Shown here: in pieces, positions 41,683 through 41,812 of the stretch | Layout of the letters: each line of letters opens with the position of its first letter | How positions within the stretch are numbered: the first letter of the stretch is position 1 | Source of the DNA: Nemertoderma westbladi | Lineage: Eukaryota; Animalia; Xenacoelomorpha | DNA length: 64,000 bases | NCBI GenBank assembly: GCA_032718475.1 | Contig: JAUCBJ010003131.1 | Location: forward strand, 1 to 64,000 | Reading direction: 5' to 3' | Notes under the pieces: generated by a model | The model's database searches: none | What the model was told of the DNA's origin: nothing | The model's input: only the letters and a program-made list of their open reading frames with translations | Made by a program: the position numbers and the translations under genes

Positions 41683-41812
41683 GAAGCATCTGAGGCTTAT
41701 CTCGTTGGATTGTTTGAGGACACGAATCTGTGCACTATCCACGCCAATCCAGTTACCATAATGCCGAAGGATATCCAAACTGGCCCGTAGGATCAGAGGC
41801 AAGAGGGCGTAA
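41683..41812 (+). pseudogene. Histone H3 C-terminal fragment (residues ~94-135)
   Basis: Translates [32 protein letters not shown], a 1-nt insertion, then [14 protein letters not shown]. Confidence 0.92.

Follow-up and report, generated by a model that had tools for sequence, protein, structure and literature searches.

Why does an intact retrotransposon in a 64-kb (64,000-nucleotide) stretch of Nemertoderma westbladi DNA, hereafter the window, run into the end of a histone H3 gene one base after its stop codon? An earlier note on this DNA had offered two readings, namely a lineage that targets H3 genes and carries its 3' flank along, or an element that had taken over H3 sequence to serve as its 3' UTR, and had named a one-off insertion or template switch as the case against both. 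The coding part of the element is a single intact ORF of 1273 aa at 37860-41681 on the + strand, ending ...GLYDILEV*, and we consider this ORF complete because its C-terminus stops at the same point as the C-termini of its homologues. Pfam identified an Ulp1 protease (PF02902, E 1.7e-15) and an RT (PF00078, RVT_1, E 2.8e-14), and the following features were placed along the protein:

aa ~23-211 of the 1273-aa ORF, + strand: Ulp1/SENP-like protease, with H113, D130 and C177 present
aa 608-796 of the 1273-aa ORF, + strand: RT domain, with YLDD at 756
aa 1080-1107 of the 1273-aa ORF, + strand: CCHC knuckle, C-X2-C-X9-H-X3-C-X8-RHS
E1128, KRVD 1138-41 and D1157 of the same ORF, + strand: restriction-like endonuclease (RLE) motifs, from motif reading, with E1128 counted by hand

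This order (one ORF with RT, then CCHC, then a PD-(D/E)XK-type endonuclease) is the layout of RLE-bearing, R2-group non-LTR elements. Homologues have KRPD where the window ORF has KRVD, and the RLE motif spacings depart by one residue at three places from the pattern in PMC12857005, with V in place of P and S in place of D/N (papers with PMC numbers are represented throughout by the parts of their text that were available). In an RT tree of 60 of the 121 proteins, P0001 grouped with the closest proteins, P0002-P0007, with support 1.0; a cluster look-up of P0002 (Atlas) returned generic eukaryotic RVT_1 clusters only. We take the CRE label from RT motifs, and architecture, TSD and these motifs together point to a CRE-like element. 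By analogy with described elements, it would be a CRE/R2-group-like retrotransposon moving through target-primed reverse transcription (TPRT).

The protease domain (window 37926-38492) is close to SENP1/2 and has the H-D-C residues. A PDB search aligned this region with human SENP1/2 (E 4.7e-19) and returned SENP proteases, with no significant R2 match. PF02902 was present in 1 of 120 listed homologues, others carrying PHD, OTU or UCH domains, and a query with the Ulp1 region found no match among proteins of 700-2228 aa (i.e., no long-protein relatives). The N-terminal Ulp1 domain may be a second, separate host-gene capture.

Past the stop codon, the description given in the earlier note held up in each of its particulars. 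Positions 41683-41778, one base 3' of the TAG, encode H3 residues 94-125 (Pfam Histone, E 5.9e-11), and an extra A (~41777) is followed by residues 126-135 and a stop to 41812. All four reported substitutions (A111T, K115N, R116P and E133K) were found at the codons named. A full-length H3 query matched the 64-kb window at 41683-41778 only, confirming that no 5' half of H3 is present, and the histone stem-loop pattern was not found between the H3 stop and the TSD. AATAAA was likewise not found from the H3 stop to the TSD, the element has no poly(A) tail at its 3' end, and RNA folding of 41682-41917 revealed nothing unusual (z +1.89; 195 of 200 shuffles folded as well). Copies were compared, and copy numbers estimated, with Logan contigs from four coded runs of the same organism (X1-X4, 3 samples). 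The 3' part of the element reads as follows:

41682-41683, + strand: junction T|G, where a minority branch continues GTAGGT (donor-like) and the H3.3 parent has CTACAG upstream (acceptor-like, at the zebrafish intron position)
41683-41812, + strand: H3.3 codons 94-135 and stop, with a +1 insertion at ~41777 common to the family contigs, non-coding here (from Pfam and contigs)
41813-41900, + strand: H3.3-derived 3' UTR, differing by small indels at ~41831 and ~41856 from the main X4 form
41901-41949, + strand: element end, common to other copies until ~41906-41917, no poly(A)

The 3' end of the family is ragged within ~41906-41917. R116P is private to the window copy (G at 41750 in all contigs compared), and A111T is probably private too, judging from difference counts in two X3 contig records. 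K115N, the extra base and E133K appear common to the whole family.

The source of the tail could be read from X4, a run labeled 'DNA?' that we infer to be RNA because its depth was zero over the flanks and over nearly all of the rest of the element outside its 3' part, for the most part of the body, and ~20000 on H3.3. Upstream of 41683, the X4 loose end TGCAGCTATTGGCGCCCTACAG reads AAIGALQ, and AAIG (residues 87-90) defines H3.3 (PMC5011920). The donor is an H3.3-type gene and not a canonical tandem H3: the two marks of H3.3 derivation, AAIG in the donor and a missing stem-loop, are both present, and canonical H3 genes taken from other organisms agree at only 54-75 positions over the first 94 nt. 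X4 depth persists to ~41898, which indicates that the capture also took in ~90 nt of the H3.3 3' UTR. The UTR of the window is matched exactly by a minor X4 contig (41802-41863, depth 872), and thus the indels in the UTR may represent alleles of H3.3 and not changes in the element. Another X4 contig, of depth 49, bridges the ORF end and H3 (41472-41747). The 74 loci recovered from genome and viral collections yielded 36 distinct H3 sequences, none of the 36 of AAIG type and none with an intron before E94, a set that does not bear on the H3.3 intron. Among the genome contigs (L083-L149) were many prokaryote MAGs with animal-type canonical H3 genes, several of which stand in tandem within a single contig; contamination from a host is the most likely source.

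The element itself was found within another transposon, bounded as follows:

37320-37327, no strand: MITE TSD ACCTAAGA, 8 bp, left copy (from the sequence)
37328-37667, no strand: non-autonomous DNA transposon, left arm, with CAGTGGCGCAGCCA as terminal inverted repeat (from the sequence; high contig depth)
37668-37677, + strand: retrotransposon TSD AATGATAATA, 10 bp, left copy (from the sequence and the empty-site join in X1-X3)
37678-37859, + strand: element 5' leader, its boundary inferred from the TSD; family contigs carry 13 additional nt close to 37747
41950-41959, + strand: retrotransposon TSD AATGATAATA, right copy (from the sequence)
41960-42588, no strand: right arm of the MITE, ending in an inverted repeat that matches the left end at 13 of 14 nt (read by eye, with a one-base offset)
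42589-42596, no strand: MITE TSD ACCTAAGA, right copy (from the sequence)

The insert (37678-41949, 4272 bp) has AATGATAATA at both sides, and contigs of the three other DNA runs (X1-X3) contain the empty site, where ...ATAAATTA is joined straight to 41950. A 10-bp duplication together with an empty-site join is the TSD on insertion known from the CRE clade, seen here for one copy only. Since the H3 piece lies inside the TSD boundaries, it came in with the element. An alternative TSD, ATTTATTTAG (37702/41891), was rejected: family depth runs past 41891, and the empty-site join fits AATGATAATA. The surrounding DNA-transposon remnant (~980 bp, inverted ends, 8-bp duplication) has the short TIRs and 8-bp TSD of a hAT-type MITE, and we regard it as hAT-like. 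This host MITE family is very abundant (X1 depth >30000 at 42204-42611 vs ~27 for single copy). Insertion in spliced-leader genes, as in trypanosomatid CRE, was not seen: the window copy lies in the MITE, and the flanks of the copies differ. The motif TTCAATG occurs at window 41944-41953 and again in the loose end behind 41906, the two 3' junction regions that could be seen; with two cases only, these give a weak hint of a short target preference.

Elsewhere in the window, a 703-aa ORF at 401-2512 on the - strand has a coiled-coil-like middle and no Pfam match; as a guess, it is possibly a retroelement gag-like gene. A second RT fragment lies at 27991-28806 on the - strand (RVT_1, E 1.4e-4, below the curated cut-off), and satellites occupy 46941-58784 (17-bp unit, ~711 times), 15349-19060 (41-bp unit, ~91 times) and 60268-63314 (40-bp unit, in two blocks). 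Rfam matched 0 families on the 64-kb window.

The junction with H3 is not confined to the window copy. Single-copy flank depth was 26.5, 29.4 and 47.5 in X1, X2 and X3, and depth over the element body was 272, 161 and 330 (5.5-10x single copy). Contigs that bridge the junction with >31 nt on each side reached 664 in X1 (41649-41715) and 1368 in X3 (41617-41743), i.e., 25x and 29x single copy. We estimated from these values that the H3-tailed junction is present in ~25 copies, the depth of collapsed contigs serving as a proxy rather than a strict copy number from copies counted one by one. The multi-copy junction excludes the one-off event that the earlier note had named as its refuting case, and the 25-29x depth supports its second reading, that the element adopted H3 as its 3' UTR. 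A minority branch at the ORF end continues without H3 and accounts for ~9% of the depth there (55 of 603 in X1, 131 of 1499 in X3).

Depth climbed toward the 3' end of the element, which is what 5' truncation predicts, and contigs began matching at 41565-41699 with unrelated flanks (including a 1039-nt X3 contig from 41565), so that both the depth rise and the contig starts correspond to 5'-truncated copies of the TPRT type. Truncated copies start at 41573, 41625 and 41699, and among the flanks listed their 5' flanks are AT-rich, unlike the H3 codons before 94; flank statements draw on the 22 of 32 loose ends and 32 of 199 pieces that were listed. Family depth also jumps ~1.6-2.5x within ~30 bp at window 41560-41620 (450 to 703 in X1, 383 to 737 in X2, 648 to 1612 in X3), which may reflect a cluster of truncation points or a ~350-bp short non-autonomous derivative. 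Between long body contigs and the window, ~0.5-1% of bases differ (5 in 1154 and 10 in 1213, for example), and X1-X3 have next to no depth either for the alleles that the window carries at 41552, 41648 and 41750 or for the stretch 41920-41939. The window copy thus seems absent from the X1-X3 samples, contigs showing presence better than absence, and this suggests recent movement. The family appears young and recently active.

Many junctions could also descend from a single old CRE insertion in an H3.3 gene that was duplicated as DNA, whether in tandem, segmentally or carried by a MITE. The TIR element around the window copy is complete and has an 8-bp TSD of its own, so the copy in principle could have been moved as cargo, and copy number here comes from depth alone. 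However, 41920-41939 has a depth of 0.45, 2.14 and 0 in X1, X2 and X3, and therefore the other copies do not run on into this MITE arm. The existence of the empty MITE join, the 10-bp TSD of the window copy, the differing flanks of truncated copies and the 3'-ward climb in depth also speak against duplication, which we regard as quite improbable. That the family took up the H3.3 end, codon 94 onward and into the 3' UTR, as its own 3' UTR is well supported, and we hold this with high confidence.

A site-specific lineage that targets H3 genes at codon 93/94 and carries the 3' flank along would likewise place H3 sequence after most of the element's 3' ends, as seen here, and RLE elements often target multicopy genes (PMC4640811, PMC3636483). 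This first reading of the earlier note nevertheless did not survive. The frameshift common to the family is absent from the major H3.3 form (contigs without the extra base at 41777 have a depth of 0 of 1410, 0 of 5864 and 0 of 1219 in X1, X2 and X3, and 20018 of 20018 in X4), and one common frameshift is not what separate insertions into functional H3 genes would give. The listed 5' flanks are AT-rich and contain no H3, the window lacks the 5' half, and neither H3 codons 1-93 upstream nor unmutated H3 downstream was found. The TSD lies 137 nt past the H3 stop, in MITE sequence, and targeting would leave no 3' UTR between stop and target. Moreover, the donor is H3.3, whose genes are few per genome (PMC6560044, PMC5011920).

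Relatives of the element also failed to reveal H3: the full-length H3 query matched 0 of 80 metagenome loci, which are only ~25-46% identical relatives and do not include DNA of the closest proteins, P0002-P0007. Pfam on 91 stop-free frames past the stop (39 of the 80 loci) gave 0 matches, with the window H3 piece as positive control, and a donor-like hexamer at most 15 nt from the stop was found in 0 of 39 loci. Targeting of H3 genes is, on all this evidence, barely credible. Relatives with sequence past the stop mostly have ordinary AT-rich tails. The distant relatives L016, L017, L032 and L041 have in common a hairpin-like motif (CCCTCGGG...CCGAGGG or similar) 3' of the ORF stop, followed by A and AAT repeats, which suggests that part of this group has a structured ancestral tail.

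We found no histone-targeting or histone-tailed retrotransposon in the literature (Repbase, which lay outside the search, may already catalogue such a family), nor any autonomous RLE element whose 3' UTR is a host exon. The word 'histone' is absent from the available portions of PMC4640811, PMC3747384, PMC5753468, PMC13708176 and PMC5035012, and the available portion of PMC6136364 reports only short Gypsy and ERV matches within fish histone amplicons.

How the element and H3.3 were joined is suggested by the minority branch. In X1 and X3, a minority contig tracks the ORF end and departs at 41683 with TAGGTGCAGCTT (12 nt visible); over 68 nt it differs from the window at 5 positions, of which two are private to the window. 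Read through the G that both share, this branch gives TAGT|GTAGGT, placing a 5' splice-site-like hexamer exactly at the junction, and the H3.3 parent reads CTACAG|GAAGCA. GT is thus found on one parent and AG on the other, the GT-AG signature of splice-derived exon capture. In window 30001-37300, GT[AG]NG occurs at 53 of 7300 positions and GT[AG][AG]GT at 7 of 7300. In zebrafish, a morpholino directed at h3f3a exon 3/intron 3 has the reverse complement GCT CTT CAG|GTGAG (PMC3447937), which places the intron after Ala-Leu-Gln, i.e., at Q93|E94. This intron is not universal, since Hydractinia H3.3 genes have only 1-2 exons (PMC5011920), and the literature on H3.3 intron position in invertebrates, including a word search of the available PMC6560044 supplement, held nothing usable. 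A chance coincidence of the donor hexamer with the H3.3 exon boundary would have a probability of 1e-3 or less by a rough, post-hoc estimate.

Splicing (cis or trans) is the most likely origin, because GT and AG lie on the two parents at an H3.3 exon boundary known from zebrafish. We consider it likely that this is a multi-copy CRE-like family whose H3.3 3' end was spliced from a donor one base after the stop onto the last H3.3 exon. Against it, the minority GTAGGT branch could be derived rather than ancestral, the model leaves 41918-41949 of the window unexplained, and there is no poly(A)/AATAAA mark at the 3' end, although one might be expected from an H3.3-ended transcript that had been processed normally. 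That end without poly(A), together with the single shared G at the junction, would suit a chimera made without splicing, in which the element and H3.3 mRNA (or a retrocopy) were joined at a 1-nt G microhomology, either by a template switch of the RT or by recombination at the DNA level, and R2Bm shows low-level template jumping in vitro (PMC10499050). Such a chimera, however, needs a donor-like hexamer (0.1-0.7% of positions) to coincide by chance with CAG|G at the known H3.3 intron position, and we think it unlikely.

Under the splicing origin, a chimeric RNA would have come from a CRE-like element copy located within or close to an H3.3 gene, or else from trans-splicing, the splice running from the donor one base past the element stop to the last H3.3 exon. 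The element's own RT and RLE would then have copied this RNA by TPRT into AT-rich sites, mostly yielding 5'-truncated copies, and the chimeric RNA would have founded the dominant subfamily. The H3 piece, lying past the stop codon, would make no protein and would act as the new 3' UTR.

Several known systems share parts of this arrangement. Members of the CRE clade (CRE1/2 and SLACS; related MoTeR and FoTeR) also have a single ORF with RT followed by CCHC and RLE, and TSDs (PMC3636483, PMC12857005). The window element differs from them in lying outside spliced-leader genes and telomeres, in its N-terminal SENP-like protease and in the replacement of its 3' UTR by H3.3. An N-terminal Ulp1-like protease on an RLE element is known from NeSL and Utopia-1_TSP (PMC4640811), but their targets are SL or U2 genes, and NeSL insertions leave deletions at the target (PMC3636483), whereas the window copy has a 10-bp duplication. 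Subfamilies founded by splicing to a host exon are represented by human SVA_F1 (MAST2 exon 1) and chimpanzee pt_SVA_D6 (STK40 exon 1), and for the chimpanzee STK40-SVA subfamily a junction at an exon boundary served as the same argument (PMC6139936). Those SVAs are non-autonomous, L1-moved and gained 5' exons, whereas the window element is autonomous, of RLE type and gained a 3' exon. The gibbon PVA (PTGR2-VNTR-Alu) arose by splicing. Its 3' part consists of host PTGR2 exon 4 with a portion of intron 4 (PMC4432496; exon-capture comparisons for SVA and PVA also come from PMC5753468 and PMC7353768). PVA is non-autonomous, L1-dependent and assumed inactive; in contrast, the window element encodes RT and endonuclease and appears recently active.

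R2 (R2Bm) shares the RT-CCHC-RLE layout and TPRT with the window element. R2Bm needs the core of its own 3' UTR to start TPRT (PMC10499050), whereas the H3.3-tailed family multiplied after an apparent exchange of its 3' UTR. Several LINEs are 'stringent' in that the 3' UTR is the protein's handle on its RNA (PMC10499050, PMC3747384), and, given these requirements, an RLE element that multiplied after a tail exchange is informative. Because the chimeric subfamily multiplied with the H3.3 tail, the protein would not need the ancestral 3' UTR to pick its template.

The H3.3 tail might even be adaptive and explain the ~10:1 excess over the H3-less branch, through H3.3-mRNA-like stability or germline handling or through shielding, an idea that we put forward tentatively and think rather doubtful. 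Shielding would arise because small RNAs against the 3' end of the element would also strike the essential histone transcript, and if the tail is adaptive, the element protein would also copy host H3.3 mRNA into new sites.

Splice-mediated exon capture of this kind would extend from primate SVAs to autonomous elements. It would also mean that 'target-site' calls from a shared downstream host gene can mislead, and that a genome with such a family contains some 25 false H3.3 fragments. An autonomous RLE element, of an enzyme class now in use for gene writing, apparently exchanged almost all of its 3' UTR for an exon of the host and multiplied afterward, and the family would thus represent a natural experiment on template recognition.
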